64,000 nt of DNA. It comes from Candidatus Woesearchaeota archaeon (GTDB lineage Archaea; Nanobdellota; Nanobdellia; Woesearchaeales; WJKR01). The DNA is taken from positions 9,894 to 73,893 of the forward strand of contig JAFGNA010000010.1 in assembly GCA_016927245.1 (NCBI GenBank). The letters are read 5' to 3'. The position numbers were made by a program, and so were the translations under genes. The notes beneath the pieces were generated by a model. It saw only the letters and a program-made list of their open reading frames with translations. It made no database searches and was not told the DNA's origin. Below are positions 19,065 through 50,303 of the stretch, in pieces; the first letter of the stretch is position 1, and each line of letters begins with the position of its first letter.

Positions 19065-19451
19065 GATGATTTTGGTTTTTGGTTTGTAATGTTTCTGTTA
19101 GTTTCACGTGTTTTTCCGGAGCTTTTCCGAGACTTGTGGTTTTGGTGTATAGCTCTCGCTAAGAAGCGGGTGTGTTCCAGAGCGTCTCTGAGCGGGTTTT
19201 TCGCCTTTGGTGCTCGTTGACGTTTCGTGGTCTCTGGTGCGCGGCAATCAGTGTTCGTCGGGGTGGTCTCGCAGATCAGGCACGTGCCGGTGGTTGGTGT
19301 GTGGTGTTCCTGTCTGTTCTGGCGACCTTCGATGCTGTGTGCAAAAAGCGGTTATTCCTGTTTTTTTGGGAATGGTTGTTTTTGCTGCTGTGTGGTTGTC
19401 GCGTCTTGGTAGTGTTTGGTAGTTGGGTGTGTCGTCGGAAGAAGCACAACT

Positions 19452-19467
19452 AATATATAAATCTTTC
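19452..19467 (-). promoter_or_regulatory. BRE/TATA promoter (minus: GAAAGATTTATATATT), identical 16-mer to 22087-22102
   Basis: Consensus archaeal TTTATATA with a purine-rich BRE, 10 nt downstream of the ATPase stop. It is followed on the minus strand by a ~385-nt C/A-rich tract leading to the ATG at 19064. Confidence 0.5.
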
Positions 19468-19476
19468 GAAAATTTA

Positions 19477-26363: not shown

Positions 26364-26386
26364 CTTATCGTTGGATGCGGTTCCCT

Positions 26387-26397
26387 ACATAAATATT
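26387..26397 (-). promoter_or_regulatory. TATA box for fen (minus AATATTTATGT)
   Basis: 24 nt upstream of the ATG at 26363. Confidence 0.55.
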
Positions 26398-26430
26398 CTG
26401 ATTCAAGAAAAAAAAAAGAAATAATCTTGA

Positions 26431-26670
26431 CTATTATGTATGAAAATAAACGAAATAAAAAAAAATTAAAACAAAAAAATATAAAAAACCACCATGTATG
26501 AAATTAAAGTACAAAAAGAATAAAAAAAACTATTAAAAAAAATAAAAAACTATTATGTATGAAAAAAGCAAGCACCTAGACAAAAAAACAAGCACGACAA
26601 CGAACATATATGAAAACATATATAAATAACCTTGATAAAAAACAACACCAACAACCACTATGTACGACAA
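26431..26670 (+). repeat. degenerate ~50-60-nt tandem repeats carrying start-codon mimics
   Basis: CTATTATGTATGAAAA occurs at 26431 and 26550 (identical 16-mers). Related copies are CCACCATGTATGAAAT at 26490 and CCACTATGTACGACAA at 26655, the last being the real start. The region is extremely A-rich. Confidence 0.7.
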
Positions 26671-27583
26671 TGAAAGCCTGACGACGACAGCCAACGCTAG
26701 GCCACGCCCGATCCCCATCACCGTCTTCTCCGACAAGCTAAGCCCCCTCGAAACCATCGTCAAGTACCTCAAGGAAAACGAAGGATTAACAGCGACCGCC
26801 ATCGCAGCCCTCCTCAACCGCAGCCCGAGCACGATCACCACCACCTACGCCAACGCCACGCAGAAACACCCGCACCCCTTCACAGCAACAACGACCAGCC
26901 TCACCATCCCCCTCGCCGTCATCAAGTACCGCAAGCTCTCCACCTCAGAAGCGATCGTCATGTACCTCCACCACTACGAACAACTCTCATTCGCCACCAT
27001 CGCAACGCACCTCCACCGCGACAACCGCGTCATCTGGACCGTGCACAAACGCGCAAGCACAAAAACCACCAAGGAACGATTCCTCAACGACCTCACCACC
27101 AGGATAGAACGGGAACGGAAACAACTCACCCCCGAAGACAAGAAAAAACTCTTCGACCTCAAGCAACGACTCCAAGAGAAATACGGCTTCTCAGAAGAAG
27201 AGCTCAAACACATCCTCACCAAAACCGCGAGCACCCACCTCCCCATCACCATCTTCACCCAAGGACTACCGCCGCTTCAAGCAATCACGAGATACCTCCA
27301 CGACGAGCAAGTCCCCACCAAGAAAATAGCAAAACTCCTCCGCCGGCCAGCAGCGCAGATCAGCAACGCCTACCACCACGCGAAGAAACAAGAATTCAAA
27401 CCACAAAAAACCCCCTACCACGTCAGCACCACCTGCATCACCCAAGACAAGACCATCATGGAAGCAATCACCCACGAGCTCAAACAACAATACAAGCTCA
27501 CCAACGACCAACTAGCAACACTCCTGAAGAAGAAACAACACAGCATCGACCGCTGGCTACGCAACCACGAGAAAAAGAGGTAG
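26660..27583 (+). CDS. tandem-HTH repeat protein (3-4 sigma-r4/LuxR-like HTH units), putative DNA-binding
   Basis: Three clear repeats of (I)P(I)T(V/I)F…L(S/P)PL(E/Q).I.(K/R)YL……IA..L.R….I…Y..A.K, plus a degenerate fourth. TATA-like ATATATAAATA at 26617-26627. Confidence 0.65.
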   Translation: MYDNESLTTTANARPRPIPITVFSDKLSPLETIVKYLKENEGLTATAIAALLNRSPSTITTTYANATQKHPHPFTATTTSLTIPLAVIKYRKLSTSEAIVMYLHHYEQLSFATIATHLHRDNRVIWTVHKRASTKTTKERFLNDLTTRIERERKQLTPEDKKKLFDLKQRLQEKYGFSEEELKHILTKTASTHLPITIFTQGLPPLQAITRYLHDEQVPTKKIAKLLRRPAAQISNAYHHAKKQEFKPQKTPYHVSTTCITQDKTIMEAITHELKQQYKLTNDQLATLLKKKQHSIDRWLRNHEKKR

Positions 27584-27586: not shown

Positions 27587-30500
27587 ATGAAGAAGAAGCA
27601 ACCGAGCAACAAACGCGCGGCAAGAAGAGCCGCCACGCTGCTCAGCGCCAGCCTCATACTCCTGCTCACCGCCATCATCGTCGCCGCGGCGCCACCAATC
27701 ACCATCGACATCGACGCCCCCGAACACGCCACCACTGGCGAGACCATCACGGTCAACATAAAAGCGACAGTCCAAGGCATCCCCATCATCAGCTACCACG
27801 CCAACGCCACCCTCGCCCACCCAGACGGCGCCGTGACCAGGCCGGAACTACGAGACCTCAGGAACGGCACGAAACAACTCAACATCACCCTAACGCAACC
27901 AGGAGACCACATCCTCATCATCGAGGCGAGCATAGGCGGCACGGCCCAGGAACGAACACTCACCATCACCGCCGAGGAACAAGCAACAGGGAGCATCGAC
28001 GTGACGTACGAGGACTACGCCCTCGGCATCCTCAGCGGCACCATCATCATCCACGACGCGCACCAACACATCATCACCCTCACCAGCGCCGACACCGCAA
28101 CAGGCCAAGAAGCCACTATCTGCGGCGTGGAGAACTGCCGTCACCACTGCACGTTCAGCTGCGCCGCCGACCTCGACGCGAACAAGCCCTACCGGCTCAC
28201 CGCCAACGCGCCCATCACCGGCGCCACCACCACGACAGTCCTCCTCCCAGCACAGCTCCAGAACAGGCCAACACTCCTCCCGCAAGAGCAGGAAGCGATA
28301 ACCGCGAGCACCGACAACGAGACCGCCACCGCCCTCAACATCACAGGGAACGAGAAGGCCTACTTGTTCGACAACGAACGAACACACCCCATAACCATCA
28401 ACAAAGGAAGCGTCACGCTCCCGCCGCTCCCAGCAGGCAAATACACCCTCATCCTCACCGACGGCACCGCCCTCAGCGCCATCACCGTCATCGCAGGCAG
28501 CGGCACACCCTCACAAGAACAACCAGTCACGGACCCGACGAGGCTCACCCTCACCAAGGACGAACTCACCAAGGCCTACGACCCCTACTACGGACAAGCA
28601 TGGTACACCGCCACCATCACCATCAACGAAGAGCACGACACCCTCGTCCTCGAGAACGAGACGGGCTGCGCGGCCAGGAACGCCGCGCTCTGGCACGGCA
28701 ACAAGCGCACCACCCTCGAACAACGCAACGACACCTGCACGTGGAAGCTGCCAGGAACGACGGGCCAGGCACGGATAGAAGTGCAGGCGAGCATCGCCCA
28801 AGCAAGCATCACCCACGAGCAACTCCAGACCAGCATCATCCACGAACAGCTACCACGAGCGTTCGACGACCACCTCATCAGCGTCTCGCTCAACAACCAA
28901 GCAGCAGGCACGTACCGCTACGTCACACCCCTACCGGGAGCAGCGACGCCCAACGACCACCCCTACGACTACGCTATCGAGGACCAACACCTCATCTGGT
29001 ACGCGAGCAACGAGCAAGCCACGATACCGCTCAGCCACGGACGAGAAGCAACGATCCCCCTCCAACGCGTAGCGCGGCAGAACGACACCTACCAGTACCG
29101 CGCCATCACGAACACCACCACAGCCCACCTCATCATACCCGCACCCTACAAGGAAGCCACCATCACCGCCGACCACGACTACAAACTCCCCGAAGAATCC
29201 TACCACTACCCCTACCTCATCGCCCTTGACCAGCCCACCGCCAAGCAAATACTCCTCACCACGACGACCAACCACACCAACGACACCATCACCGCCATCA
29301 GCAAAGCGCCGACCATGGCAATAGAGGGGCTGCCCTCGCAACTGCGCAAACAAGACCGCGCCAACCTCACCCTCACCACCCCGAGCAAGGAGTGGAACGC
29401 CACCCCCAACGCCACGATACGGCTCCTCGACCGGGAAGCAGGGACGGTCATGGCCGTGCACCAAGCGCTCGCCCACGAAGAGAACGGCACCTACCACGAC
29501 CAGGTAGCCCTGGACCTCGCAGCGGTCACCCCCGGCGCCTACACCCTCATCGCGACGTTCAGGCAAGGAGCCGCATACGCCACCACCACCGAAGAAGTCC
29601 TCATAACAGGCGAGGCGGGCGGCTTCAGCATCACCCCGGGCAAGCACGTCACGGCCGCGAAAGGAGAAGACGTGAACCTACAGCACGCCATCACCAACCT
29701 CGAAAGCGAGCGAAGCCTCATCATCAACCTCGACCTCCTCTACGAGCTCGAGAACGTGACGGCAACCATCAAGGACGACGAAGGCGTGAAGGCATTAACG
29801 GACAACGACAAAGACGGCAGGCCAGATACCGGCATACTCCTACCAGGAGAGACCGTCATCATCACCATCAACGGCCGCGTGCCGGCATGGGCTGAGAACG
29901 AGACAAAAGTCATCATCAAGGCGTCCGCAGCAAGCCAGGCACGCAGCATCGAGGATGACATCACCATCACATCACAAGAAGACATCATCATCCCCGCCTA
30001 CCACGACCTCGCCATCACCGGCATCGAGGAAGAAGACGGAACGGTGCTCATCACTATCATTAACAACGACGAAAATGACAGGACTGCGATGGTGGAGGTA
30101 ACCCTCAAGGACAAGAACTTCACGGACACCATAACCGTGCCTGTCAGCGTTCGAGCAAGAGATGAATCGGTCATCCCCGTCCAGAGGCGCGGCATAAGGC
30201 AGCCGTACGAGTGCGCCGCAACGCTCCTGGACGAGGAAGGATTACCGTACGCCGATGACAAGCAAGCCAACGACCGGCGCGTACGCCTGTTCAATGACGA
30301 GTGGACCGAGCCGTACACGCGACGCGCAGCGGTAGCCATCAAGGAGGTGCGCGGCGCCGACCACGACGCCTACGCCATCAAGGCGACGATCGACCTGCCT
30401 GACGACGCCGACATGGCAACGATGACAGCGGTCAAGCCGGCAAGGGAAGGAGGCGCGTTCACGACGAAGACCCTCAGCATCACCTACCTGTCGTTCGACG

Positions 30501-33500
30501 ACCAGGAGAAACGGGGCGAGCTACTCATCGACGCAGGACTCGTCAAGGCCAGCACTGAGAGCCTCATTTACTTGTACCTCAACGCCACGGGGGAGAACTC
30601 CACGGTCACCGTCGATGAAGCGGCAGGCATCATCATCGACAACAACGACCGGCTCGTCAGCACGGACGGCACCTGGGCCTCGGACTACCAGGTGCCCGGC
30701 CACTACAAAGCGGACTACCTCCACGACCTCGGCATCGGCAAGGGCAACAAAGCGGTCACCGTCAAGCCAGGAGACCACCCGTCCTTCACCCCGTCGACGT
30801 ACGAGGTGTACGCGTACCGGCCGGCGGACCGAGCGTTCTCGAGCAACGCCAAGACCGTCATCGCGCACGAGGACGGCGAGGAGACCATCACGCAGAACCA
30901 GCGCGTCAACGGGGAAGAGTGGCGCTACCTCGGCCTGTACCGCCTCGGCGACAGCAGCACTATCATCACCGACAACGAGCACACCAACGGCCTCGTCGTC
31001 TTCGACGCGCTCAGGCTGCTCCGCGTAGACCAGTACGCAACCACAGGCAAGGCAGAGACGAGAGCCGCGCACGACAACCGCTCAATAACCCTTGAAGAAG
31101 ACGGTGATGAGAGGAACTACACGTTCACCCTCGACATGACGATACGCGCGCATGCCAACGTGACCGACGTGCTCGTCACGAGCAGCCACGGCAATGAGAC
31201 CGTCGCCCTCAACACGACGAGGATCGACGACGCCTTCATGACGGCGTACCGGGCAATCGGCAGCGAGCAGCGCTACACCGCGAGCGTCGTCGCCTATGAC
31301 GGGAACGAGACGGTCGACCTCACCTACCTGGAATTCCCGTTCAGAGATGAACGGGAGCACGCCGTCACGAAGAACACCACCCTGCTCCTGCTCCAAGCAA
31401 CCTATCACTACGGCGATGAGGAGGCAGCGGAGGACGAGGGGAACGCCACCGTAAACAGGACGGGGGAGGCAGAGAACAAGACAATCAAGGGCTGGACCAC
31501 GATTGTCAGCGGAAAGAGCACGACGATACGCCTCCCTGACACGTTTGAAGGCAACGCGACTAACGCGACGTACGGCGTGTACTTCCTCATGCCATGGGGC
31601 AACGCGTCAGGATTGAACATCAGCATCAAGGGAGAGAACGCCACGCTCAGCGCCAACGATGAAGGAGAAGGGGACTTCACCGCGCAGTTCAACAGGACCT
31701 GGCATGACAGGACTGAGAGGAGCGCGTACGTGAACATCACCATCCTGCCCGCAGAGAACATCACGAACACTACTGAGGCGGAAGGGGAACCAGTAGAGGC
31801 GGTGCGGCAGGAGCCCGCGACCGTGGGCGAGCCCGTGCGGTGGACCAAGTACGTCCAGGGAGAATGGACCACGAGGATTCCTGTGAGTGCCGAGAACGTC
31901 GCGCTCGAGGCGGATGGGGAGCTTGTGGAGGAGGAAGAGACCGCCGTCATCATAGCAGGAAAACGCCTCGGACTCGCTGATTTCAGGGAACTTAGGCGAG
32001 CGGAGCTGCTGGAACGAGAAGCTGACGAGCTGGAGTTGGAGAAGGAGGACGCCAAGCTGGTCCGGAAGACGGCCATCGCGCTCGATCAGCAAGACCTGCG
32101 CGGCCAGGCCGAGAGCATCAAGGAATCATTAGGGGTGGACCTCGACGATGAGGAGAACGTCACGCTCGTCATCGATCGGCCTCACGATAAGAAGGCCATT
32201 GCCAAGATCACCTATGAGACCGAGGCGCCACTGCAAGAAGAGGAGCACGTCGGCAGGCCAGGCCTGCTCAAACGCGTCAAGGTGCACTCGAGCGCGAGCG
32301 TGCACTACCAGGACGTCAAGACCATGACCTGGCTGCCGGAGACCCCGATAACGCCCCGGCTCTACCACGTCATCGATGGACGACGAGTCGACGTCACCGA
32401 CAACAAGGATTACAGAGTCTCGTTCAACGACGCTGACGGTGACGGCATGGCTGACAGCGCGTCGTGGACCGTGCCGATGCTCTCAGAACAGTACTTCGAG
32501 TTCGGCCTCGCCACCATCAACACCCGGAAATCATTGTACCGCCCTGGCGAGACGGCAGAGGTCGTCATCGTCGTGCTGGACAACGAAGGACACCTCGTCA
32601 GCGGCGCTGACGTCGAGGTCAACGTGACCGAGCCTGACAACACCACGACGAGGTACACCACCGGCAGTGGTCACATCACCGAGACCGAGCCTGGCATCTA
32701 CGATCTCAGTCACGGAAGCACGGCGAACGAGGGCCGGTACGGGCTCTCCGTCAAGGCCACAAAACCAGGCGTGGAGAACGACATGCAATCCCACTTCGAC
32801 GTCCAGGCGTGGTACCCGTTCGACATCCTCCGCGACGTCCCTGTCACTGTTGACCCGTGGCGGGAAGAGCTCGAGGCGAGCATCACCGTCGTCGCATATA
32901 ACCACACCGACTCCTTCTCCTTAAAGGAGCACGTCCCGACGAGCTTCCTCATCAGCGACGCGGGCGGAGCAGTAGTGAGCGAGAACGGGAGCAGGAAGAC
33001 CTTGACGTGGACCGGGCTCACGAACGGCTCCGTCGCCTCCTACACGGCGTCCCTGCCGCTCATCACCCCGACCATGTATGATCTCGGAGAGGCAAAGATA
33101 ACGTATGGCAATAGCTCGTTCACCGAAGGCCGGCCATGGTACCTCGCCGTCGACCCCATCGAGCAGTTCACCAAGACGTGCCTCAACCTGGTCACCGAGG
33201 GAGCGGTGGCGGGGGACAACACCGGCACGTGCGCGCAAGTCGCGACGAGCAACAATACTCGGCCTGCGGGCGGGGACAACGCGCTCACTGCGGCTGATAA
33301 CTGGTTCGGCACCGACGCCCCTGCCGTGCTGACCGAGACGTTCGACGCCAATACTCCGACGGACGCCAACGTGTCCTATGCCTACCTCACTATCGAGTGG
33401 GGCACCCAGGATTGCGGCTCGCCCGCCTACATCACCATGGAGGTGAACAACGGCACGGGGTGGTACACGTTCGCCAACACGTGCTACACCACGCCCGAGG

Positions 33501-36500
33501 CGACGAGGCACTATGACCTCAGCGGCTACGTCACCACGGGAGACGCCGCGAACGAGCTGCAAATAAGGATTACCTACGGCGCTGACAGGGACGGCGGGGA
33601 CACCACGGACGACCTCTACGTCGACTACATCGACCTCGTCATCAACTACACCGTCGCCCCGCATTACAACACGTGGAGCCTGAACGTGAGCAACGGCGCC
33701 GTCGTTCGGCGGGGAACGCCGGTCAAGGCGTACGCGTACTGGAACTACAGCGACGGCATCGCCGAGTCGTACATCAAGCACAACGCGAACGGCACCTACC
33801 ACAACTATACTATCATGCCTTCAGGTGATTGGACGAACTACACGTTCAACACGCCGAACACGACGATGTTCAACCGCGTCGGCATCATCACCGCTCAGAC
33901 CATCTACGCGCGCGACTACGACGTGTGGAACCAGACGGCGCCGACGAAGAACTTCAAGCTCTATGACGACGCGAACGTCTCTGATTCCACGTTGACGCCG
34001 AGCATCATCAACCAGTCTGACAACGCGACTCTCATCTGCAAGGTCATGGACTACCACCTTAACTCCCCAATAGAGGACTTCACCGTGTATTTCTACCGTG
34101 ACGGCGCGTACAAGGCGAGCGCGAAGACGAACGCGACGGGGTGGGCATCGTACGACGCGGCGTACACGACTCCCGGCACGTACAACGTCTCGTGCCGCAT
34201 CAAGGACAGCGGGTATTACTACGCCCTCGCAGGCGCCAACAGTTCCTACGGGGAGCTGACCGTGCTGGACAGCTCATCTCCGAGCGTCAGTTTGGTCTCG
34301 CCTGCGGACAGCAGCCAATCAACAAATCAGAACGTCACGTTCACCTACACTGTTTCTGACACCTACTCGGGCATCCAGAACTGCTCGCTCTACCTCAACA
34401 GCACCAGGAACGCGAGCAACAGCACCGTCATCACCGAGTCAGGGAGCAACCAGATCAACGTCACCTTGCCGTACGGCACGTACGTCTGGGCGGTGGGTTG
34501 CTATGACAACAGCACGAACAGGAACTTCAAGCTCTCCGCGAACAGGACCATCGTCGTCGCGCCGGACTCAGAGGGACCTGTTATCACGCACTATCTGCCG
34601 CCGAACACGGGGATGACGTACGAGAACGTCACGTTCCTGTTCAACGTGGAGGACGCTCTGAGCGGGGTCAAGAACTGCACGCTCATCCTTGACGGCCTCG
34701 ACAACGTGAGCAACGCTTCCATCAGCAACGGCGATAACGTCTCGTTCGACGCGTACCTGCTCGATGACGGCCTGCACAGCTGGAAGGTGCGGTGCTATGA
34801 TGACTCTCCCGCGGAGAACGTGCGCACGAGCATCATCTGGACGTTCACGGTCGGCGAGGACGAGGACGGCCCTATCATCACGGTCATCTCGCCGCTGAAC
34901 AACACGGTGGACACCGACGGAAAGGTGAACATCACGTTCATCGCGGATGACTTCCTCTCAGGAGTGGAGAACTGCTCGCTCTATATCAATGACACGCTTA
35001 ATCAGACATACTACGCCAAGACGGTTCTTACCATGCCATTTGGAGCCGGAAGCAACAGCACCTTTACAGCAGATGAGTCAGGAAATGGAAACGATGGCAC
35101 GGTCATCAATGCCACATGGGGATCCTCCACAGGCTACAATGGTGAAGGATCATATTATTTTGACGGTGCCAGCGCATATATTGACATCCCTTCCTTGGCT
35201 ATAAGCAACTCACCTGGCTTTACCATCATGATGTGGGTGAAGGGACCTCCCAATCAGAACGATATGCGAATATTCTCTGAAGGCAGCACCATAGACCATG
35301 ATCCATTATTCAATCTGGGGACCAACATAGGGGGTGGTGAGCTAGATATTTACATCCGAGATGATGACGGGACCGAACGCATGAGCCACGTGCTGTCAAG
35401 CGCCGACGTCTTTGACAATACCTGGCATCATATTGCTTGGGTGGATGTCGGAGGGAATTATCAGCTGTATGTGGACGGCGAACCCGATATCTCAGGCTCC
35501 TACACGAAGACCGCGAAGTCATTGGACACCACCACTCTTGGCGCGATAAGACGCGCGGCTGTCAGCCATTACTTCACGGGCTACATAGATGAGGTGGAAC
35601 TATTCAATCAATCACTCTCCGCGGAACAGATCCGGGCGGAGTATGCGAACGTCTCCTTAGTGGAGGGAGAAGAAACCATCTTTTCTGAAGACAGCTTTTC
35701 AGAAGGAACTTATGCCTGGCATATCTCCTGCGTCGACGACTCAATCAACAGCAATGTCAGGAACACGTCCATACGAATACTCTATGTCAATTACGACTTC
35801 GACTCCCCTGACATCACGCTGGTATGGCCTGACAACCTCTACCAGGACCTCGACGGTGAACTCGACCTGGAATACAACGTGACGGACGAGAATGGCATCA
35901 GTAACTGCTCGCTGTACATTAACGGCTCTTATAACCGGTCGGACACCAGCGTCACTAAAGGGGTTAGCCAGTACTTCAGCCTGACAGGGCTCGCCGACAA
36001 CACTTACCTCTGGTACGTGAACTGCACGGACGACGCGGACGGTGAGAACTGGAACTATTCAGAGACGAGGAACTTCAGCGTCGGCCCGGACACCATCGGG
36101 CCTGCCATCACGCTCTTCGCCCCTTCCAACAGCACCACCGACTCCGACGGTGACATATTGTTCACCTACCAGGTCGACGACGTCTCCTCGGGCGTGGACA
36201 GCTGTCGCCTCTACGTCGACGGCGTCGAGGAGGACAGCGACGGCAGCATCACCGAAAGTATAGAGCAGGAGTTCTCGTTCAGCCTGGCCAATGGTGACTA
36301 TGAGTGGTATATCAACTGCACTGATGACTCGCCGCAGCAGAACATCGGCGTCAGCGAGACGCGCGACCTGACGGTGAGCATCTCGTACGAGTCCGAGTAC
36401 GACTTCTACCTGCCGAAGAGCACGTACGCCGCGGGCTCGGTTATCGAGCCGGTCGCGCACCTCGAGGACCCGGGAAGCGCCCCTATCGCCTCGGCGACGG

Positions 36501-39500
36501 CGTACGCGTACATCATCGAGAACCTCGGCGCTGACAACCAGACATTGTCCTGGTTCAACTCGTCATGGGAGCGGCGGATTGAGCAGCTGGTGACGAACGA
36601 CGACGCGTCGTACGCGCTCGAGGGATTCCCCATCAACATCACATTGGACACCGAGACGCTCATCAACGACGGACTCCTTAACGCCGATTGCAGCGACCTC
36701 CGCTTCGCAGACCAAGAAGGCACCGAGCTCGATCACTACTTCTACGATGCGGATAACGCGTGCGATGATACCGGTTCCAAGGTGCTCGTCTACCTTGACC
36801 GGTTGTGGAAGGGCCGCACGCACGCCATCGGCATCTACTTCAACAACTCCGCCGCGACGGCGGACGTCACGACGAGGAGCGCCTCGCAAGCAGTCGACAA
36901 CTTCGATGACGGCGACACCTTCCCCTCGGGAAGCGGGTATTGGAGCACCTCTTACACGAACGGCGCCGACGAGTGGTACCAGGACACCGCGCAAGTGTAC
37001 GACGGCACGAACGCTGCGCATTCCTACATCAGCTGCAACATCTTCTGCTCATTCGGCGGCGGCCGGCGCTCGTCGTTCAGCAAGGTCATCGAGATCAACG
37101 AGGAGAGCACCATCCATTGGCGTTGGTACGTGACGGGCGGCAGTGCCATCAGGTTCTCGATCGACAGCGCGCAGCAGACGAGTACCACCGCCGCGTCGTG
37201 GAACGCCGCCTCTGCCACCATCAGCCCAGGCACGCACACCATCGAGTGGGAATTCGAGGTCACCACCAACGCTAACAGGAACGCCTATGTCGACCAGATA
37301 TTCCTCGTGGGCAGCAACGCCACGGTCGGCGACCAGACGTCACAATCCACGTACGTCGCAACGCTACCCTCCAAGACCACGGACGCGAACGGCAACGCGA
37401 CGTTCTCATGGGACAGCATCGGCCAGTCCTACGGCAACTACTCGGTCACCGGGCACGCCCTGAAAGGCGCGTATTGGGGCGACAACGGGTCCATCTCGTT
37501 CTCCCTCGGCCCCGACACCGAGGAGCCTACGTATACGTCGTGGGGATTGAACGTGAGCGATGGCGCGGCCGTGACGCGCGGCGAGTCCGTCAAGGCGTAC
37601 GCGTACTGGTCTGACGACGTCCAGCTGGATGATGCTTTGCTCGAGCACAACGGTTCCGGAAGCTTCACCAATTATTCAATAACGGGGTTCGGCGGCGCTA
37701 AAGGCGACTGGGCGAACTATACCCTGAACACCTCTGACACGACTGATTTCGCTAGCATCGGCCTCGTCAACGTCAGCAAGATGTATGCGAATGACACGAC
37801 GGGGAACACGAACAAGACGACTCCTTATCATTACTTCTTCCTCTACTCGACAGCGGAAATCAATGATTCTTCCTTGAACGCCACGGCCGTCGACGAGGGA
37901 AGTTCCTTCACGGCGAAGTGCCGCGTCCGTGACGAGTACACCTTTTCGTCGTTGAGCGGCTACACCGTCACCTTCTATTTCGACGGCGTGTCCAAGGGCT
38001 CGGTGGACACGGACAGCGGCGGATGGGCGAACAAGAGCATCCAGAGCGACGTCCCGGGCGACAACGTCGAGGTGGTGTGCGTCATCGGGAACGAGACGTC
38101 CATGTATTATTACAGGGGCTCTCCGTATTCCTTGACGCAGCATATCAACATCACGGACATCTATCCTCCTGACGTGACCATCTTCACCCCTGCAAACAAG
38201 AGCACGAAGACGACGCCGACGCACGCCTTGAGCTTCACCGCTGATGACACGGGCACGCTCGACCGTTGCTGGTTGTACGGCGATTGGAACGGCGGCTGGC
38301 ACCGCAACCAGACGATGATGGACCCTGACAACGGCGGCTTCCCCTTCGTGAACTACTTCGACCCGGTCACGTTCGAAGCCGGCAACTACACCTGGAATGT
38401 GTACTGCAATGACACTGCAGGTAACATGGGCGTGATGGGTGATGCTTGGTTCATCATCGACCTGCAGCAGCCTAATGTCCAGATAACCAGTCCTGCCTTC
38501 CATGAGTTGCGGTCGCCCGGCACCCATTTAGTGAATTACACGGTGCAGCTGCCCGACCCGATCATCGGCATCGACAACTGCACCTTGTACGTCGACGGCG
38601 CGTACAACCAGACCGACCCCGGGCCTATTGAGAAGGTGGTGAACCAGAACTTCACCATCGGCTACCTCGGCTACGGGAAGTATCTCATCAACATCTCGTG
38701 CACCGCGAACAACACGCTCTCAGGATATGATACCGAGTTCATCTACATCCCGAGGATACGGACGTACGCGCCGGTGAACGGCTCGGCGGCGGAGCGAGAC
38801 CCGTTGTCAGCCATGCCTGACGACCTCACTTTCATGGTCGAGGAGCTCAGCGGCGGGAGCGACATCTCCATCACGTTCAAGGCGAACCACACCTCTCCTT
38901 CGTTGGGGGTGTTGCAGAACGAGTCCATGGGCGTGTCGCTCACGAACGCGACTGGCATCGCTTCCTCGACGTTCAATCCGGGCGCGGCATGGTTCGCGGG
39001 CAACTACACGTGGTGGGGGATGTTCACGTGGTGGCCGTCCAACGTCACGGTGGATTACCGGTGGTTCTTGCTGTACGGCTACGCGGACGTGGTGTTCAGG
39101 GAAGCGGCCTCGGGTCCTGGCGCGTCATACGTCTACCGGGAGGAGGTCACGGTGCAGGCCTTGGTGGACAGCACGGGCCCGGAGAGCGCGTCGGTGATGA
39201 ACCAGAGCTATGGCGCCAGGGCGAACGCGACGTTCCGGTCGCCGCGCAAGGAGAGCAACCTGACCTATGAGCTCGTGTTTAACGGCACGTCCTGGACGGT
39301 GACGCAGAACTCTTCCTTGTTCCGGCGCCATGGGTTCTGGAACGTCTCGTTGGAGGGTAACGTCTCGTCGCCGTTCATCAGCATCAACGACACCTCTTGG
39401 CGGACGTTCTTCCTCAACCTGACCGGGTACGGCATCCCGACCGTGCAGCTGCACGACCCTGATAATGATTCCACGTTGTTCTTCGCCGACCGCGACAAGA

Positions 39501-41326
39501 ACTGGACGCTCATCTCGTTCAACTGGACCGCGAATGACACCATCGAGGATTTCACTTACTGCAACCTCACGCTCGACGGCTCGGTGAACGTCTCTGATGT
39601 CAAGTCCTTGAATGCGACGTGGACGGACAGGAACATCAATTTCACCGGTGGAGGGTATCATTATTGGAACGTCTCTTGCTCTGACGACGCCAACGCGGTC
39701 GCATCGGACACGTACATGTTCAAGATTGTGCCTCCTGACTCGCGAGTGCAGTTGATGAACTACACGCTCGGTGGCGGCAATGCGACGGTGTATGAGCAGG
39801 TGAACTTCACCGCTAACTACACAAACTATTACAACGAGTCTATCATCGGTAATTGCACCATCAGGTTCAATGACGGCTTGTCGGATAGCATGACGTATAA
39901 CATTACATCTGAGCTGTATGAGTACGAGCGGAACATGACGTACGGCGGCTGGATATATTGGAACGTGTCGTGCAACCACACGACGTATTATGACACCGCG
40001 GTCGCGAACGCTTCCTACTACACGCATCGCACCAAGGTGAACGTCACCGCTCCTTCCAACGGCACGGCCTTGGACCGGGACGGCACTGATGGTGGCGTGC
40101 CGGACAGCGCCGTCATCTACACGCTGCTCGCCAAGCAGTACCCTGGCGTGAACATCTCGTTCTGGGCGAACAGGACATACCCTGATTCGTGGTCCGTGGA
40201 GTATCTCGGCATGAACCAGACGAACGCGACAGGCCATACTTCCTTGGTGTTCGATCCGAACAGCACGTTCTGGGCTGGTAATTACACGTTGTTCACGAAC
40301 AGCAGCCTGGCCGATCCTATGATGACCAAGTATGCTTACGTGAAGGGCACGTTGAACGTCACGTTCAGCTATGCCGGCGCGTATCCGAACGCGTCGTACT
40401 ACCGCAACTCTACGGTCGAGGCAAGGTTCAACGTCACTTCGATGGGTGCTGAGAACAGTTCCTTGTTGGATTCGTATTACCTGGATGACTCTACGTTGCG
40501 GGCGTATTACGTGTCGCCGTCGGGCACGGATGTGCGGTCGTTGAACCTCTCCTTGGTATCGGGCGATGTGTTCAATGCGAGCAGCTTCATGAACACGACC
40601 GCTGAGCTCGACTTGTGGAACGTGTCGGCCAACTACACTGAGACAGAGTATTTCTTCTTCAACCAGAGCCCGACGCGGCAGTTCAACCTGACGAAGATTC
40701 CGACGACGCTCACGGCGTGGGACCAGTACGGCCCCGAGGAAGGCTACGTTCCTGCGTACAGGGCCGAGAACGTCTCGTTCTATGCGAACTTCACGAATAA
40801 CATCACCGGTGCGCCTATCAGTATTTCTCAGAGCTGCAACTTCTCGTTCGGTGATGGCATGTGGGCGTGGGGTGCTTGGAACGCGACTTCTGGGTTGCAT
40901 GAGGTGCGTAACAAGTCGTTCGACCCGCATGGCTTGTACGCGTGGAACGTGACGTGCGGCAACTGGTTGTACCAGTACCGGTCGTGGACGGACAGCATCA
41001 GGGTGTATGCGCGCACGAACCTTTCGCTCACGGGGTCTTTGTCGTGGGTCGGTGATGACCGGCTGCGCATGGATATCTCCATCGTGAACTACGCCGTGTA
41101 TGACGAGTGGGTGAACGCGTATGGGTTCATCCCGTTGAACTTCTCGTGGTACGGGTTTTCGCCGTTCGGCCCTGACGCGACGACGGCGGTCTCTGGCTTG
41201 TTCGTCGGCAACGCTTCTGAGACGAACCTGACCGTGCCCGCGGCTGGCTCGTTGCCGTTCTCGTTCCTCATCAATCGGACGGCGCCGTATAACACGCGAG
41301 GCCTGTTCATGTTCGGCGGCGGTTAG
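27587..41326 (+). CDS. giant secreted/surface protein (4,579 aa): Ig-like repeats, LamG, DUF2341-like, sequon-dense
   Basis: Uninterrupted 13.7-kb ORF starting 3 nt after the HTH gene, with a GAGG SD. N-terminal signal anchor RRAATLLSASLILLLTAIIVAAAP. About 95-aa repeats carry D..GP.I…SG(V/I).NC(S/T)LY. LamG (Laminin_G_3-like) at ~35063-35645. DUF2341-like W.RR…FP(I)…D.RF.D..G..L.(Y/H)…(W)…I..Y(F/Y).N at ~36565-36856. N-x-S/T sequons occur throughout. Confidence 0.9.
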   Translation: MKKKQPSNKRAARRAATLLSASLILLLTAIIVAAAPPITIDIDAPEHATTGETITVNIKATVQGIPIISYHANATLAHPDGAVTRPELRDLRNGTKQLNITLTQPGDHILIIEASIGGTAQERTLTITAEEQATGSIDVTYEDYALGILSGTIIIHDAHQHIITLTSADTATGQEATICGVENCRHHCTFSCAADLDANKPYRLTANAPITGATTTTVLLPAQLQNRPTLLPQEQEAITASTDNETATALNITGNEKAYLFDNERTHPITINKGSVTLPPLPAGKYTLILTDGTALSAITVIAGSGTPSQEQPVTDPTRLTLTKDELTKAYDPYYGQAWYTATITINEEHDTLVLENETGCAARNAALWHGNKRTTLEQRNDTCTWKLPGTTGQARIEVQASIAQASITHEQLQTSIIHEQLPRAFDDHLISVSLNNQAAGTYRYVTPLPGAATPNDHPYDYAIEDQHLIWYASNEQATIPLSHGREATIPLQRVARQNDTYQYRAITNTTTAHLIIPAPYKEATITADHDYKLPEESYHYPYLIALDQPTAKQILLTTTTNHTNDTITAISKAPTMAIEGLPSQLRKQDRANLTLTTPSKEWNATPNATIRLLDREAGTVMAVHQALAHEENGTYHDQVALDLAAVTPGAYTLIATFRQGAAYATTTEEVLITGEAGGFSITPGKHVTAAKGEDVNLQHAITNLESERSLIINLDLLYELENVTATIKDDEGVKALTDNDKDGRPDTGILLPGETVIITINGRVPAWAENETKVIIKASAASQARSIEDDITITSQEDIIIPAYHDLAITGIEEEDGTVLITIINNDENDRTAMVEVTLKDKNFTDTITVPVSVRARDESVIPVQRRGIRQPYECAATLLDEEGLPYADDKQANDRRVRLFNDEWTEPYTRRAAVAIKEVRGADHDAYAIKATIDLPDDADMATMTAVKPAREGGAFTTKTLSITYLSFDDQEKRGELLIDAGLVKASTESLIYLYLNATGENSTVTVDEAAGIIIDNNDRLVSTDGTWASDYQVPGHYKADYLHDLGIGKGNKAVTVKPGDHPSFTPSTYEVYAYRPADRAFSSNAKTVIAHEDGEETITQNQRVNGEEWRYLGLYRLGDSSTIITDNEHTNGLVVFDALRLLRVDQYATTGKAETRAAHDNRSITLEEDGDERNYTFTLDMTIRAHANVTDVLVTSSHGNETVALNTTRIDDAFMTAYRAIGSEQRYTASVVAYDGNETVDLTYLEFPFRDEREHAVTKNTTLLLLQATYHYGDEEAAEDEGNATVNRTGEAENKTIKGWTTIVSGKSTTIRLPDTFEGNATNATYGVYFLMPWGNASGLNISIKGENATLSANDEGEGDFTAQFNRTWHDRTERSAYVNITILPAENITNTTEAEGEPVEAVRQEPATVGEPVRWTKYVQGEWTTRIPVSAENVALEADGELVEEEETAVIIAGKRLGLADFRELRRAELLEREADELELEKEDAKLVRKTAIALDQQDLRGQAESIKESLGVDLDDEENVTLVIDRPHDKKAIAKITYETEAPLQEEEHVGRPGLLKRVKVHSSASVHYQDVKTMTWLPETPITPRLYHVIDGRRVDVTDNKDYRVSFNDADGDGMADSASWTVPMLSEQYFEFGLATINTRKSLYRPGETAEVVIVVLDNEGHLVSGADVEVNVTEPDNTTTRYTTGSGHITETEPGIYDLSHGSTANEGRYGLSVKATKPGVENDMQSHFDVQAWYPFDILRDVPVTVDPWREELEASITVVAYNHTDSFSLKEHVPTSFLISDAGGAVVSENGSRKTLTWTGLTNGSVASYTASLPLITPTMYDLGEAKITYGNSSFTEGRPWYLAVDPIEQFTKTCLNLVTEGAVAGDNTGTCAQVATSNNTRPAGGDNALTAADNWFGTDAPAVLTETFDANTPTDANVSYAYLTIEWGTQDCGSPAYITMEVNNGTGWYTFANTCYTTPEATRHYDLSGYVTTGDAANELQIRITYGADRDGGDTTDDLYVDYIDLVINYTVAPHYNTWSLNVSNGAVVRRGTPVKAYAYWNYSDGIAESYIKHNANGTYHNYTIMPSGDWTNYTFNTPNTTMFNRVGIITAQTIYARDYDVWNQTAPTKNFKLYDDANVSDSTLTPSIINQSDNATLICKVMDYHLNSPIEDFTVYFYRDGAYKASAKTNATGWASYDAAYTTPGTYNVSCRIKDSGYYYALAGANSSYGELTVLDSSSPSVSLVSPADSSQSTNQNVTFTYTVSDTYSGIQNCSLYLNSTRNASNSTVITESGSNQINVTLPYGTYVWAVGCYDNSTNRNFKLSANRTIVVAPDSEGPVITHYLPPNTGMTYENVTFLFNVEDALSGVKNCTLILDGLDNVSNASISNGDNVSFDAYLLDDGLHSWKVRCYDDSPAENVRTSIIWTFTVGEDEDGPIITVISPLNNTVDTDGKVNITFIADDFLSGVENCSLYINDTLNQTYYAKTVLTMPFGAGSNSTFTADESGNGNDGTVINATWGSSTGYNGEGSYYFDGASAYIDIPSLAISNSPGFTIMMWVKGPPNQNDMRIFSEGSTIDHDPLFNLGTNIGGGELDIYIRDDDGTERMSHVLSSADVFDNTWHHIAWVDVGGNYQLYVDGEPDISGSYTKTAKSLDTTTLGAIRRAAVSHYFTGYIDEVELFNQSLSAEQIRAEYANVSLVEGEETIFSEDSFSEGTYAWHISCVDDSINSNVRNTSIRILYVNYDFDSPDITLVWPDNLYQDLDGELDLEYNVTDENGISNCSLYINGSYNRSDTSVTKGVSQYFSLTGLADNTYLWYVNCTDDADGENWNYSETRNFSVGPDTIGPAITLFAPSNSTTDSDGDILFTYQVDDVSSGVDSCRLYVDGVEEDSDGSITESIEQEFSFSLANGDYEWYINCTDDSPQQNIGVSETRDLTVSISYESEYDFYLPKSTYAAGSVIEPVAHLEDPGSAPIASATAYAYIIENLGADNQTLSWFNSSWERRIEQLVTNDDASYALEGFPINITLDTETLINDGLLNADCSDLRFADQEGTELDHYFYDADNACDDTGSKVLVYLDRLWKGRTHAIGIYFNNSAATADVTTRSASQAVDNFDDGDTFPSGSGYWSTSYTNGADEWYQDTAQVYDGTNAAHSYISCNIFCSFGGGRRSSFSKVIEINEESTIHWRWYVTGGSAIRFSIDSAQQTSTTAASWNAASATISPGTHTIEWEFEVTTNANRNAYVDQIFLVGSNATVGDQTSQSTYVATLPSKTTDANGNATFSWDSIGQSYGNYSVTGHALKGAYWGDNGSISFSLGPDTEEPTYTSWGLNVSDGAAVTRGESVKAYAYWSDDVQLDDALLEHNGSGSFTNYSITGFGGAKGDWANYTLNTSDTTDFASIGLVNVSKMYANDTTGNTNKTTPYHYFFLYSTAEINDSSLNATAVDEGSSFTAKCRVRDEYTFSSLSGYTVTFYFDGVSKGSVDTDSGGWANKSIQSDVPGDNVEVVCVIGNETSMYYYRGSPYSLTQHINITDIYPPDVTIFTPANKSTKTTPTHALSFTADDTGTLDRCWLYGDWNGGWHRNQTMMDPDNGGFPFVNYFDPVTFEAGNYTWNVYCNDTAGNMGVMGDAWFIIDLQQPNVQITSPAFHELRSPGTHLVNYTVQLPDPIIGIDNCTLYVDGAYNQTDPGPIEKVVNQNFTIGYLGYGKYLINISCTANNTLSGYDTEFIYIPRIRTYAPVNGSAAERDPLSAMPDDLTFMVEELSGGSDISITFKANHTSPSLGVLQNESMGVSLTNATGIASSTFNPGAAWFAGNYTWWGMFTWWPSNVTVDYRWFLLYGYADVVFREAASGPGASYVYREEVTVQALVDSTGPESASVMNQSYGARANATFRSPRKESNLTYELVFNGTSWTVTQNSSLFRRHGFWNVSLEGNVSSPFISINDTSWRTFFLNLTGYGIPTVQLHDPDNDSTLFFADRDKNWTLISFNWTANDTIEDFTYCNLTLDGSVNVSDVKSLNATWTDRNINFTGGGYHYWNVSCSDDANAVASDTYMFKIVPPDSRVQLMNYTLGGGNATVYEQVNFTANYTNYYNESIIGNCTIRFNDGLSDSMTYNITSELYEYERNMTYGGWIYWNVSCNHTTYYDTAVANASYYTHRTKVNVTAPSNGTALDRDGTDGGVPDSAVIYTLLAKQYPGVNISFWANRTYPDSWSVEYLGMNQTNATGHTSLVFDPNSTFWAGNYTLFTNSSLADPMMTKYAYVKGTLNVTFSYAGAYPNASYYRNSTVEARFNVTSMGAENSSLLDSYYLDDSTLRAYYVSPSGTDVRSLNLSLVSGDVFNASSFMNTTAELDLWNVSANYTETEYFFFNQSPTRQFNLTKIPTTLTAWDQYGPEEGYVPAYRAENVSFYANFTNNITGAPISISQSCNFSFGDGMWAWGAWNATSGLHEVRNKSFDPHGLYAWNVTCGNWLYQYRSWTDSIRVYARTNLSLTGSLSWVGDDRLRMDISIVNYAVYDEWVNAYGFIPLNFSWYGFSPFGPDATTAVSGLFVGNASETNLTVPAAGSLPFSFLINRTAPYNTRGLFMFGGG

Positions 41327-42225
41327 ATCTGGACGAGGAGTAGCCCTTTGTATTCGTGCTTGAGCTTGTCCTTGGCTTTCTTGGCCACGTCGCCGGTGGT
41401 GATGAAGAGCACTGGTAGTTTTTTTCCTTGCCCTTGGAGGTAGGCTGAGCTGAGGTCGCCGTCGTTGCATTTCTTCTTGTTCTTCGCCTTGCAGAAGTAG
41501 TCCACCCTGCCGACCGCGGTGGGGAGGGTGATCTCGAACTCGATGTCTGAGTCTTTTCGCTTGACGTCTTTCTTGGTGACGTGGATGCGTTTCTCCGTGA
41601 AGTATGCCAGGACTCGTCTGAGGAAGGGGTCGCCGGTGTCGTCTTGTTCTTTGAGGGCTTTCGTCGTGGGGGTTGGTCGCGGCTCTGCTGGTCGCTCGGT
41701 GGGGGTGTGCTGGGGGGTCGTTGCGGGCGTTGCTGCTTGAGCAGGGGGGTTTCTTGGCTGTTCCTTGGCTTGTTCGGGCGTGATGCCGAGCGCTTGTTTG
41801 ACTTGGTTCTCTGCTTCGTCGTTGGGGAGGAGGTACCATTTCCAGAAGAGTTCTGCGCCGTCCTTGGTCTTGGCCTCGACGGGGATGGCGAAGTCTTTTA
41901 TCTGGCGGAGGCACACCCTGGTGAGCGGTTCTTGTTCTTTGTCTCTGAGGACTTTCCGCTCTTTGAGGAGTTGCGCTGCTCGTCGTTCTTTCTCTCCGAG
42001 GTCGTCGAGGTGCTCTGCCATCCGGTAGGCGTGTTCTGGCACGTAGTAGAACGGGCTGCCTCCTCGTTTGGTGTTGCTGATCTTGAGCTTGCCGGCTTCT
42101 CGTAGCTCGGTGAGGAGGGCGCCGATGGTGAAGGTGTCTCCTTCGCCGAGTGCTTGTTTGATGTGGACGGGGAGGCAGGGTCCTTTTCGTTGGAGGACGC
42201 TGAGGACTGCTTCTCTGGTGAGCAT
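41323..42225 (-). CDS. winged-helix DNA-binding protein with PD-(D/E)xK-like C-terminal domain (tentative)
   Basis: N-terminal wHTH-like segments. The Pro/Thr/Ala linker is followed by …SDIEFEITL…VDYFCKAKNKKK…YLQGQGKKLPVLFITTG, resembling an Mrr/restriction-endonuclease fold. Overlaps the giant gene stop by 4 nt. Confidence 0.6.
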   Translation of the reverse strand: MLTREAVLSVLQRKGPCLPVHIKQALGEGDTFTIGALLTELREAGKLKISNTKRGGSPFYYVPEHAYRMAEHLDDLGEKERRAAQLLKERKVLRDKEQEPLTRVCLRQIKDFAIPVEAKTKDGAELFWKWYLLPNDEAENQVKQALGITPEQAKEQPRNPPAQAATPATTPQHTPTERPAEPRPTPTTKALKEQDDTGDPFLRRVLAYFTEKRIHVTKKDVKRKDSDIEFEITLPTAVGRVDYFCKAKNKKKCNDGDLSSAYLQGQGKKLPVLFITTGDVAKKAKDKLKHEYKGLLLVQI

Positions 42226-42327
42226 GGTTTTCTGTGAACTCGGCGGAGTATTTAATCCTTGTTGCTGTTCCTGAACAACATATTTTTTCTATAAGGAAAA
42301 TAAATTGGTCAAAAAAAATTCGCCAGA

Positions 42328-42972
42328 TCATGGCCTCATCCATTTAATCTCCCAGTAGCTGACGTCCCCTTCGTCATCAACGACACCGATGAGCAGCCGT
42401 TTCTTGGTGCTGTGCGCCACCCTGTTCTTCGCGGCGAACTCGTACCAGGTCAACGTGCTACCTTCGTGCACGGGGTAGACGACCCAGCGCGCGTGGTCCT
42501 CGCCTGGCTTGACGCCGCGGTCGTACACCCTGAAGTCCGCGCCGAACTTCAGCGCCGTCTTGACGATGTAGCCCCTGTTCCTCATGTCCTTGAAGACGGC
42601 GTACCTGATCCAGAATTCCGGCTCTATCCGTTTCGCCTTGGCGAGGAAGCTGGTGAAATCCAATTCTTTGTTGCGGTAGTCCTTCACGCGTAGCCGCCCT
42701 TTTTCCAGGAGGTACAGGGACTCGTGCAGCGACAGCTGGACCTTCCCGTCTTCCAGCACGACGCCGAAACGGCTCTGGGCGTAGAGGTCTCTGGCGAGGT
42801 CGGAGCTCTCCGTGATGACGCGTTCCTTGGCGAAGAGTGCGTGCACTTTCTCTTTGCGTTTCCCGTTGCTTACTGCTTTGGGGATGAGCTTGTTGAGGTC
42901 TTCCTCGTCCAGCGGTGAGGGGAGGGTGAATTCTTCTGTGTGGATGGATTCTGGTGCTTGTTTTTTCACCAT
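42328..42972 (-). CDS. endA: tRNA-splicing endonuclease
   Basis: C-terminal catalytic domain Y.VFKDMRNRGYIVKTALKFGADFRVY…H(A)RWVV(Y)…VAHSTKKRLLIG, with the conserved Tyr/His/Lys pattern. 214 aa. Confidence 0.9.
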   Translation of the reverse strand: MVKKQAPESIHTEEFTLPSPLDEEDLNKLIPKAVSNGKRKEKVHALFAKERVITESSDLARDLYAQSRFGVVLEDGKVQLSLHESLYLLEKGRLRVKDYRNKELDFTSFLAKAKRIEPEFWIRYAVFKDMRNRGYIVKTALKFGADFRVYDRGVKPGEDHARWVVYPVHEGSTLTWYEFAAKNRVAHSTKKRLLIGVVDDEGDVSYWEIKWMRP

Positions 42973-50300: not shown

Positions 50301-50303
50301 CTC

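Follow-up and report, generated by a model that had tools for sequence, protein, structure and literature searches.

The locus analysed here raises the question of what an archaeon does with a single protein of 4,579 amino acids (aa), and how such a protein could be exported, decorated and retained. The window (the whole stretch of DNA that was analysed, 64 kb of contig JAFGNA010000010.1) contains the gene for this giant protein, which occupies about a fifth of it. The explanation that fits the evidence best, and which we regard as probable, is that the giant leaves the cell through Sec, is heavily N-glycosylated and forms a lectin-bearing adhesive fibre of a DPANN archaeon, a dedicated DNA-binding protein being co-expressed with it; contact between cells is put forward more tentatively as its role. 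The gene, its upstream neighbour and the region in front of both are located as follows:

27587..41326 (+): giant open reading frame (ORF), 4,579 aa, 503 kDa before glycosylation, isoelectric point (pI) 4.45, 194 N-glycosylation sequons
26660..27583 (+): partner gene, 307 aa, pI 9.9, four sigma-70 region-4/LuxR-like helix-turn-helix (HTH) repeats
26364..26659 (+): intergenic region in front of the two genes, putative promoter/operator of the unit, GC content 0.23, 56% A

Open reading frame and protein family

In the ORF listing of the window, the giant ORF starts with an ATG and runs as one uninterrupted frame. An initial annotation of this DNA had described the same single ORF of 4,579 aa; its coordinates, start, length and quoted strings all match. 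GC content at third codon positions (GC3) is even throughout, with values of 0.77-0.87 per 900-nucleotide (nt) block and one exception at 0.63, the other genes of the window having values of 0.71-0.90. Judging from the alignment of the last residues, the C-terminus of the giant is natural, as it coincides with the C-termini of the relatives P0002 (...LYMFAS), P0014 (...LYIIGLG) and P0009 (...FVLGLGLQ).

An exhaustive HMMER search with aa 3380-4579 as query retrieved 675 cluster representatives at E<1e-3, including 83 at E<1e-30. Of the best 149 representatives, 99 reach 2,000 aa or more, with a maximum of 7,799 aa. The collinear orthologues P0002, P0006, P0007 and P0008 share 42-47% identity with the giant over ~2,100-3,000 residues. 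Indeed, P0002 aligns with aa 24-212, 642-1151, 1413-2474 and 2690-4577 of the giant at 23-44% identity, and P0006, P0007 and P0008 do so in a similar way. The orthologues have in common with the giant (i) an MG2+CARDB-like core, (ii) immunoglobulin (Ig)-like repeats and (iii) sequon saturation; the signal peptide and the Ig/4-Cys N-terminus are also found in P0002, and the C-terminal module in P0002 and P0006, where the orthologue reaches that far. P0002, P0007 and P0008 (42-44% identity) and the more distant P0032 bear the NCBI source name Candidatus Woesearchaeota archaeon, and a near-identical relative of P0002 is named Nanobdellota archaeon. The NCBI protein names within the family are DUF2341 domain-containing, CARDB domain-containing, Ig-like domain-containing or hypothetical protein (e.g. 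MFO7710524.1, MBN2880443.1, MCF7861918.1).

On the strength of these alignments, the giant is a clear member of a large, unnamed and essentially uncharacterised family centred on Woesearchaeota, with which it shares collinear similarity, the MG2+CARDB-like core, the sequon saturation (61% of Asn) and a small upstream gene. It differs from the collinear members by an extra LamG insertion (aa 2475-2689), and from the family by a partner gene that is an HTH array instead of an integrase-like gene and by the absence of archaellin-type neighbours in the window. In a limited literature search, neither the family nor its sequon saturation or partner gene was found described, and the accession numbers of the relatives were not found in the literature either. 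A word-index homologue search with the N-terminal 1,200 aa and the C-terminal 480 aa, a method that is insensitive here, gave no matches, and a search of the contigs of species-representative genomes with the whole giant gave only unrelated LamG matches, in a betaproteobacterium and in a Methanosarcinales metagenome-assembled genome.

The gene content of the window marks it as archaeal: an RNase P RNA of archaeal type is present, together with genes for FEN1, Trm5/TYW2, a tRNA-intron endonuclease, RNase Z and PAN, and many of its genes are orphans. An origin from a halophile or from Nanohaloarchaeota was rejected, the housekeeping proteins having pI values of 6.3-9.9 and the proteome not being acidic.

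Predicted N-glycosylation

The giant contains 194 N-x(not P)-S/T sequons, compared with 57.3±6.6 in composition-preserving shuffles. Their density reaches 4.24 per 100 aa and 61% of the Asn residues lie within a sequon, versus 0.32 per 100 aa and 11% in 15 neighbouring genes with Pfam support. The dense sequons reported in the initial annotation are thus borne out against both backgrounds. The bias is directional and specific to position +2: Ser or Thr follows Asn at +2 in 61% of cases, versus 13-24% at any of the other offsets between -5 and +5, and the reverse motif S/T-x-N occurs only 60 times. Between aa 3801 and 4400, 53 sequons were counted for 57 Asn. Positions are partly conserved as well, since 10 sequon columns are common to at least 8 of the 11 sequences in the alignment of the C-terminal module (24-36% identity). 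The trait is family-wide: 149 representatives have a median density of 5.95 sequons per 100 aa and a median share of 55% of Asn in sequons (range 30-90%).

Such a pattern resembles selection for N-glycosylation, as far as statistical evidence can stand for chemistry, and the giant is very probably a glycoprotein. The proposal of a heavily N-glycosylated extracellular protein therefore gains statistical support from the directional bias, from the partly position-conserved sequons and from the occurrence of the trait throughout the family.

A second large extracellular-type protein is encoded at 60383-64000 (-) and extends past the end of the window; its GC3 of 0.80 corresponds to the native codon bias. 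Two Laminin_G_3 domains, FG-GAP repeats and a 3-keto-disaccharide-hydrolase/concanavalin A-like domain were predicted in it. This protein has 0 sequons for 64 Asn, where ~10 are expected, and the value of 0 was reached in 0 of 1,000 shuffles. Taken together, the two proteins suggest that sequons are selected in both directions within one archaeal genome.

Domain architecture

The modules predicted in the mature part of the giant are, from the N-terminus to the C-terminus:

27695..28222 (+): conserved N-terminal module (aa 37-212), Ig-like domain and 4-Cys motif
30620..31027 (+): Golvesin_C/carbohydrate-binding-module-like domain (aa 1012-1147; Pfam span 1015-1145; PF25275, 1.8e-15)
31973..32128 (+): charged helical segment (aa ~1463-1514), from composition and low-confidence AlphaFold2 (AF2) helices, conserved in P0002
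32492..33163 (+): MG2-like plus CARDB-like beta-sandwich core (aa 1636-1859), with a Pfam match to MG2 (3.8e-09) at 1646-1727 and the end ...EGRPWYLAVDP
33650-34696 (+): large internal duplication, copy 1 (aa 2022-2370), 25-46% identity to copy 2
34268..35008 (+): first block of ~98-aa Cys-pair Ig-like repeats of Big_7/DUF7035 type (aa 2228-2474)
35009..35653 (+): LamG (Laminin_G_3) insertion (aa 2475-2689; Pfam span 2526-2682; 5.9e-23)
35654..36424 (+): second block of Ig-like repeats (aa 2690-2946)
36686..36946 (+): DUF2341 (aa 3034-3120; PF10102, 26.5 bits for a cutoff of 23.4)
37517..38599 (+): large internal duplication, copy 2 (aa 3311-3671)
39884..41323 (+): C-terminal sequon-saturated module (aa 4100-4579), 38 sequons, ~four tandem beta-sandwich domains

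The Ig-like modules, the LamG, the DUF2341-like domain and the internal duplications listed in the initial annotation are all recovered here, either as Pfam matches or as duplications at 25-45% identity. Its Thr/His/Ala/Gln-rich region of ~700 aa fared less well: this part is not of low complexity, as aa 24-212 (Ig-like, 4-Cys) and the sequence from aa ~642 onwards (aa 642-1208) are conserved in relatives. The N-terminal module is collinear with P0002, P0014 and P0027 according to BLAST and gives weak Filamin and InlJ_IG matches. Its 4-Cys motif (C-x4-C-x3-C-x3-C, aa 179-192, 28121-28162) is conserved in six of the six aligned family members and, in a module that would lie close to the cell, may form a disulfide knot or a metal site.

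Several modules point to carbohydrate binding. The Golvesin_C domain is the only part of the giant with a sequence relative of solved structure, namely the C-terminal domain of the Paenibacillus xanthan lyase 6f2p (E 7.8e-15), which we take to be a carbohydrate-binding module. The LamG segment has the lowest GC3 of the ORF (0.57; the flanks have 0.88 and 0.77, and the gene as a whole has 0.81), and its nearest copies are LamG modules of other giants of the family (~31% identity). As this segment is missing at the same junction in the four collinear orthologues P0002, P0006, P0007 and P0008, whose alignments continue straight across, and as it is the GC3 minimum, comparison indicates that the LamG is a lineage-specific and compositionally foreign acquisition.

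The MG2+CARDB-like module is the best-conserved one in the searched stretch aa 1150-2030, with 32-49% identity to many distant relatives. The AF2 model of aa 1400-2030 has low confidence at aa 1400-1640 and 1860-1908; within the module, the per-residue confidence (pLDDT) lies mostly between 75 and 94 (~85), and Foldseek leads to the macroglobulin (MG) domains of alpha-2-macroglobulin and complement. A family motif, EARPWYLAVDP, marks the end of this core, and the version found in the giant agrees with it. The charged helical segment upstream lies within aa 1401-1600, the only sequon-poor stretch of the giant (1 sequon), and is a possible stalk, hinge or oligomerisation element.

Pfam Big_7 matches were obtained at aa 2232-2292 and 2839-2901, along with weak Big_1 and DUF7035 matches. 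Besides the large duplication and the ~98-aa Ig repeats, aa 3603-3875 resemble aa 4027-4298, and aa 4003-4129 resemble aa 4314-4457 (25-45% identity). For the C-terminal 480 aa, an AF2 model built with 11 relatives is all-beta, with ~four sandwiches and a pLDDT of 80. The top Foldseek match of this model is to the extender repeats of the large adhesion protein 6xi3 (TM-score 0.35), the next ones being to MG/Ig arrays of complement, alpha-2-macroglobulins and PrgB. In the segments left unannotated, Pfam at E<=1 gave only marginal Ig-like matches.

Signal sequence and retention on the cell

The N-terminus of the giant carries the following feature:

27587..27694 (+): signal sequence (aa 1-36), basic n-region, hydrophobic stretch LLSASLILLLTAIIVAAA, then PP

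The only hydrophobic segment of the giant lies at aa 15-33, and no hydropathy window above 1.6 occurs elsewhere. The initial annotation had read this segment as a signal anchor. Five aligned N-termini of relatives have short hydrophobic regions followed by small-residue sites (VHG/QE, AYA/AE, IAA/VP, the slash marking the cleavage position) ahead of a conserved first beta-strand, and the equivalent position in the giant is ...IVAAA/PPITIDI. The segment thus aligns with short signal peptides that look cleavable, and a cleavable Sec signal, probably, is the more economical reading; an uncleaved N-terminal anchor is possible, given the core of 19-20 residues.

At the other end (...NTRGLFMFGGG), hydropathy shows no segment near the C-terminus, and no C-terminal transmembrane (TM) helix, PGF-CTERM/archaeosortase or other sorting signal was found by this means, in line with what had been noted before. 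With a cleaved Sec signal and no C-terminal anchor, the giant would have no covalent membrane anchor and its retention would be non-covalent. Of the two modes of attachment envisaged in the initial annotation, the N-terminal anchor is therefore disfavoured by the N-termini of the relatives and the non-covalent mode is favoured. Candidate routes of retention are the N-terminal Ig/4-Cys module, lectin modules bound to the cell's own glycans, or a filament. The family as a whole uses at least three different C-terminal endings: a TM helix with a basic tail is present in 13 of 150 representatives, and 44 of 150 end in G(T/I)YDYEIxVPAxLRDY...FYTEL(R/K) (e.g. P0024, P0029, P0031-P0037 and P0040).

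Upstream partner gene and putative operator

The partner gene stops 4 nt before the ATG of the giant, with a GAGGT motif in between. Its product matches HTH_23, HTH_38 and Sigma70_r4_2 in Pfam and sigma-70 r4 in NCBIfam, and is homologous (E 1e-12) to a 129-aa two-HTH protein of locus L006, whose gene overlaps the start of the orthologue P0006. The arrangement recurs in the family. Indeed, a small gene lies directly upstream of the giant in nine of nine relatives' loci; it overlaps the start of the giant in eight of them and ends 158 nt upstream in L009. Overlap is seen in the examined orthologue loci of P0002, P0006 and P0008.

In seven loci (L003, L004, L005, L007, L009, L010 and that of P0004) the partner is a degenerate tyrosine-recombinase-like protein of 143-215 aa, whose gene overlaps the start of the giant in six of the seven; the upstream partner in L008 is a protein of no known type. 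By eye, the canonical box II Arg/His and the catalytic Tyr appear to be lost from the partners of L003, L004 and L005; because of this apparent loss, the integrase-like partners are read as putative DNA-binding proteins. A relationship between these and the HTH partner of the window was rejected, as no significant similarity was found and the latter is related to the partner of L006 instead.

The intergenic region upstream of the partner gene is the most AT-rich of the window. The sequence ATGTATGAAA occurs there in exact copies at 26437, 26495 and 26556 and as a variant at ~26608, with a spacing of 58-61 bp, and nowhere else in the 64 kb; no similar motif was found upstream of the homologous partner gene in L006. 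These repeats are possible operator sites for the four-HTH protein.

Proposed mechanism and alternative explanations

According to the adhesive-fibre reading, the giant gene and the upstream four-HTH gene would share a transcript that starts from an AT-rich promoter with four spaced repeats, and their translation would probably be coupled. The product would be exported through Sec by its N-terminal signal, which is probably cleaved, as suggested by the relatives. An archaeal oligosaccharyltransferase would then glycosylate Asn at up to 194 sequons on the emerging chain, as the directional N-x-S/T bias suggests. The chain would fold into ~40-45 beta-sandwich domains and form an extended rod of ~0.1-0.2 µm, the all-beta fold being modelled for the C-terminal 480 aa and aa 1640-1859 and extrapolated elsewhere from repeats and Pfam matches. 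The lectin-like modules (Golvesin_C/carbohydrate-binding-module-like, LamG, and DUF2341 with a neighbouring jelly-roll-like region) may bind carbohydrate on another cell, in a matrix or on the cell's own envelope, as their domain families suggest. Retention would be non-covalent, through the N-terminal Ig/4-Cys module or, more speculatively for this genome and by extension from the neighbourhoods of relatives, through an archaellum/type IV pilus-like filament. The suggestion of a giant adhesin-like protein in a DPANN lineage is in agreement with the names of the orthologues (Woesearchaeota, Nanobdellota) and with the resemblance of the C-terminal model to adhesin extender repeats.

Several points weigh against this reading. 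Glycosylation, surface location, binding and mode of retention of the giant are all predictions. No catalytic or host-directed domain was found in the giant with Pfam and NCBIfam on tiles covering the whole protein, and AF2 models and Pfam matches together cover only about half of it. Neither AglB/STT3 nor an Agl-type cluster is present in the window, and no archaellin, pilin, T2SSE/F or Peptidase_A24 gene was found there by Pfam on most of the larger ORFs or by tblastn with the pilins of relatives. The DPANN (Woesearchaeota-type) lineage is likely, on the basis of the NCBI names of the orthologues and not of a phylogeny of contig markers. Finally, contact between an episymbiont and its host is inferred, and the window shows no sign of a host.

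The alternative that survives best, although unlikely, is a filament-associated adhesin: the giant would sit at the tip of an archaellum or type IV pilus-like filament or serve as one of its accessory proteins, in a PilY1-like role, and the missing membrane anchor would be explained. Its DUF2341 match lies above the threshold, and giant DUF2341 proteins of archaeal type IV pilus loci have been predicted to have such a role (Makarova et al. 2016, PMC4858521). Furthermore, archaellin-type genes, whose products have N-termini of the form MGIGTLIIFIA...LQQKAL, lie within a few kb in six of the nine relatives' loci, all six being among the seven with a tyrosine-recombinase-like partner, and L003 and L010 additionally carry FlaI/FlaJ/FlaK/FlaH-like genes. 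However, three of these six loci are mutually syntenic and hence not independent, and L006, the only relative with a homologous partner gene, has no archaellin-type genes in its flanks. As no archaellin or pilin gene (nor T2SSE) was detected in the window, the link to a filament rests on the relatives. At the N-terminus, RRA/ATLLSA in the giant fits a loose FlaFind-like class III signal pattern, but the relatives carry ordinary Sec-type signals.

Less likely again is a structural protein of the envelope or matrix, either an S-layer-like coat or a halomucin-like secreted capsule, which would protect or hydrate the cell instead of binding a partner. The extreme potential for N-glycosylation and the acidic pI, as in archaeal S-layer glycoproteins, are consistent with such a protein, as is the family-wide occurrence of this potential, and the missing anchor would fit a protein released into a matrix. 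However, no S-layer family domain was found with Pfam or NCBIfam, several lectin-like modules are present, and the variation of the family in length (2,000 to 7,800 aa), its module shuffling, its domain insertion and its differing C-termini are adhesin-like and not lattice-like.

An alpha-2-macroglobulin-like protease trap or a polysaccharide-degrading scaffold is very improbable. It could be suggested by the MG2 match, by the Foldseek matches to bacterial alpha-2-macroglobulins and complement and by a Golvesin_C domain shared with a xanthan lyase, but the structural matches are to generic tandem beta-sandwiches (TM-scores 0.14-0.35), and no A2M, TED, receptor-binding or catalytic carbohydrate-active enzyme domain was found in Pfam or NCBIfam. 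The CxEQ thioester motif occurs nowhere in the giant, and an alpha-2-macroglobulin function was rejected on this ground.

An artefact, be it an assembly that is chimeric or collapsed or an ORF that arose by chance, is scarcely credible: GC-rich DNA does yield long spurious ORFs, but the codon-position GC bias is even along 13.7 kb, Pfam domains, protein-level repeats and collinear orthologues cover almost the entire length, near-identical DNA repeats are absent from the gene, and the identical protein is on public record from an NCBI contig of 85.6 kb. The concern that repeats could have been mis-assembled is eased by the DNA itself, in which the longest direct repeat within the gene measures 71 nt at 77% identity, next to a single trivial tandem repeat. 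As no long or near-identical repeats exist, a collapse is unlikely; the internal duplications, at 25-45% protein identity, are old and not of the type that collapses in assembly.

The spurious ORF of this window is found at 39125..42343 (-). It would encode 1,072 aa and lies across the giant gene's 3' end and its downstream neighbour; it was rejected as a real gene because of its GC3 of 0.42 and the lack of any Pfam or family match. It is a product of GC-rich DNA that an automatic gene caller could miscall. The giant gene was also rejected as the target of a diversity-generating retroelement, as no repeat of at least 50 nt links it to another site (the 71-nt match being internal), and no reverse transcriptase was found among the scanned ORFs of the window. 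Shufflon-like repeats were likewise rejected by the DNA repeat comparison.

Comparison with known systems

Giant surface proteins are a recognised trait of DPANN archaea (PMC10266531). The nanohaloarchaeal SPEARE giants have 8,880-9,409 aa and carry a VirB4-like ATPase domain, as in SVXNc_0300 (9,409 aa) (PMC10266531). The giant described here resembles them by its DPANN context, its size, its Sec signal, its long Ig-like/fibronectin-like arrays and the role proposed in contact with host cells. However, SPEARE proteins are membrane-anchored near the C-terminus, carry a VirB4/TraG-like ATPase domain in the cytosol and have a secretion ATPase encoded next to them. The giant has no C-terminal TM helix, no ATPase domain and no adjacent ATPase gene, and these described features set it apart. 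It is not a member of the SPEARE group, whose defining TM and ATPase parts are absent.

A second point of comparison is provided by the archaeal DUF2341 proteins of type IV pilus loci (arCOG03508/MJ1470-like), which are predicted pilus-tip adhesins (Makarova et al. 2016, PMC4858521). Like these, the giant is a large secreted archaeal protein with DUF2341, and some of its relatives are encoded beside archaellin/type IV pilus-type genes. In contrast to them, it is much larger, glycosylated Ig repeats dominate its predicted architecture, and no type IV pilus or archaellum genes were detected in the window.

With the bacterial RTX/LapA/MpIBP giant adhesins the giant shares a long string of Ig-like extenders carrying a few lectin-like, ligand-binding modules, and its best structural match (6xi3) belongs to this comparison. 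It is unlike RTX/LapA proteins in that Pfam revealed no RTX repeats (HemolysinCabind), type I secretion signal or N-terminal retention plug, and in that it is archaeal and Sec-exported, with massive N-glycosylation predicted; moreover, the TM-score is only 0.35.

Archaeal S-layer glycoproteins and the halomucin of Haloquadratum walsbyi are Sec-exported, acidic and sequon-rich, and halomucin (cited in PMC10266531) is a giant without an anchor. The Sec signal, the acidity and the sequon richness are also found in the giant, as are the size and the missing anchor of halomucin. However, the giant lacks PGF-CTERM, a TM anchor and S-layer or mucin-type domains, S-layer families being absent from the Pfam and NCBIfam matches on tiles covering the whole protein, and the non-acidic proteome speaks against a halophile. 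The giant resembles S-layer glycoproteins only in its predicted glycosylation.

Significance for DPANN archaea

Woesearchaeota and other DPANN archaea occur in abundance, have mostly escaped cultivation and are believed to rely on other cells. To our knowledge, apart from a few cultured nanohaloarchaea and Nanoarchaeota, little is known about their attachment to partners. The giant defines a concrete and widespread candidate for a DPANN contact apparatus, with at least 675 protein clusters and with testable family traits, namely massive N-glycosylation, lectin-like modules, a conserved regulatory partner gene and, in relatives, a link to filament loci. Furthermore, the LamG insert illustrates domain accretion, and the giant together with the sequon-free protein illustrates a two-way selection on sequons. 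No new principle is shown, as giant LamG/Ig-rich adhesin-like surface proteins were already expected in these lineages. The regularities most worthy of attention are those at the level of the family: the coupled DNA-binding partner, the association with filament loci, and sequon saturation versus purging.

A much bolder generalisation, which we hold to be quite improbable, would extend one module to DPANN archaea as a whole. In it, translation of the giant glycoprotein would be coupled to that of its own small DNA-binding protein, either an HTH array or a degenerate tyrosine-recombinase-like protein; many lineages would mount the giant on an archaellum/type IV pilus-like filament, as a glycan-shielded 'grappling line' for the capture of partners. 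The sequon-purged LamG/FG-GAP protein would then hint at a division between glycosylated ligand and unglycosylated lectin, that is, at a glycan recognition code.

Other genes of the neighbourhood

The next gene downstream of the giant is a convergent ORF of 300 aa without a family. Beyond it and tRNA-processing genes, which part it from the giant gene, a cluster at 47374-53657 (+) comprises two orphan multi-pass membrane proteins, a family 2 glycosyltransferase (GT2; 50304-51578) and a PMT_2/GT-C-like protein (52248-53657). The best full-length match of the GT2 is the processive poly-beta-1,6-GlcNAc synthase PgaC/IcaA (153 bits, below the family cutoff). The initial annotation had connected the giant with a glycosylation cluster 6 kb downstream; without AglB/STT3 and separated by other genes, this cluster offers no specific support for such a connection. 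It looks more like a set for polysaccharide (exopolysaccharide) or lipid-linked sugar synthesis than like an Agl N-glycosylation cluster, and may feed glycans to the envelope.

On the other side, small orphan ORFs follow one another over ~8300-21516 (-), several of them with a hydrophobic segment at the N-terminus, and the run ends in a 679-aa ATPase (19477-21516, -) with DUF87/HerA, CedD, CedB and VirB4-like matches. This run could be a DNA-transfer/secretion-type system or an integrated element; the ATPase gene lies 6 kb upstream of the giant gene, on the other strand and behind housekeeping genes.

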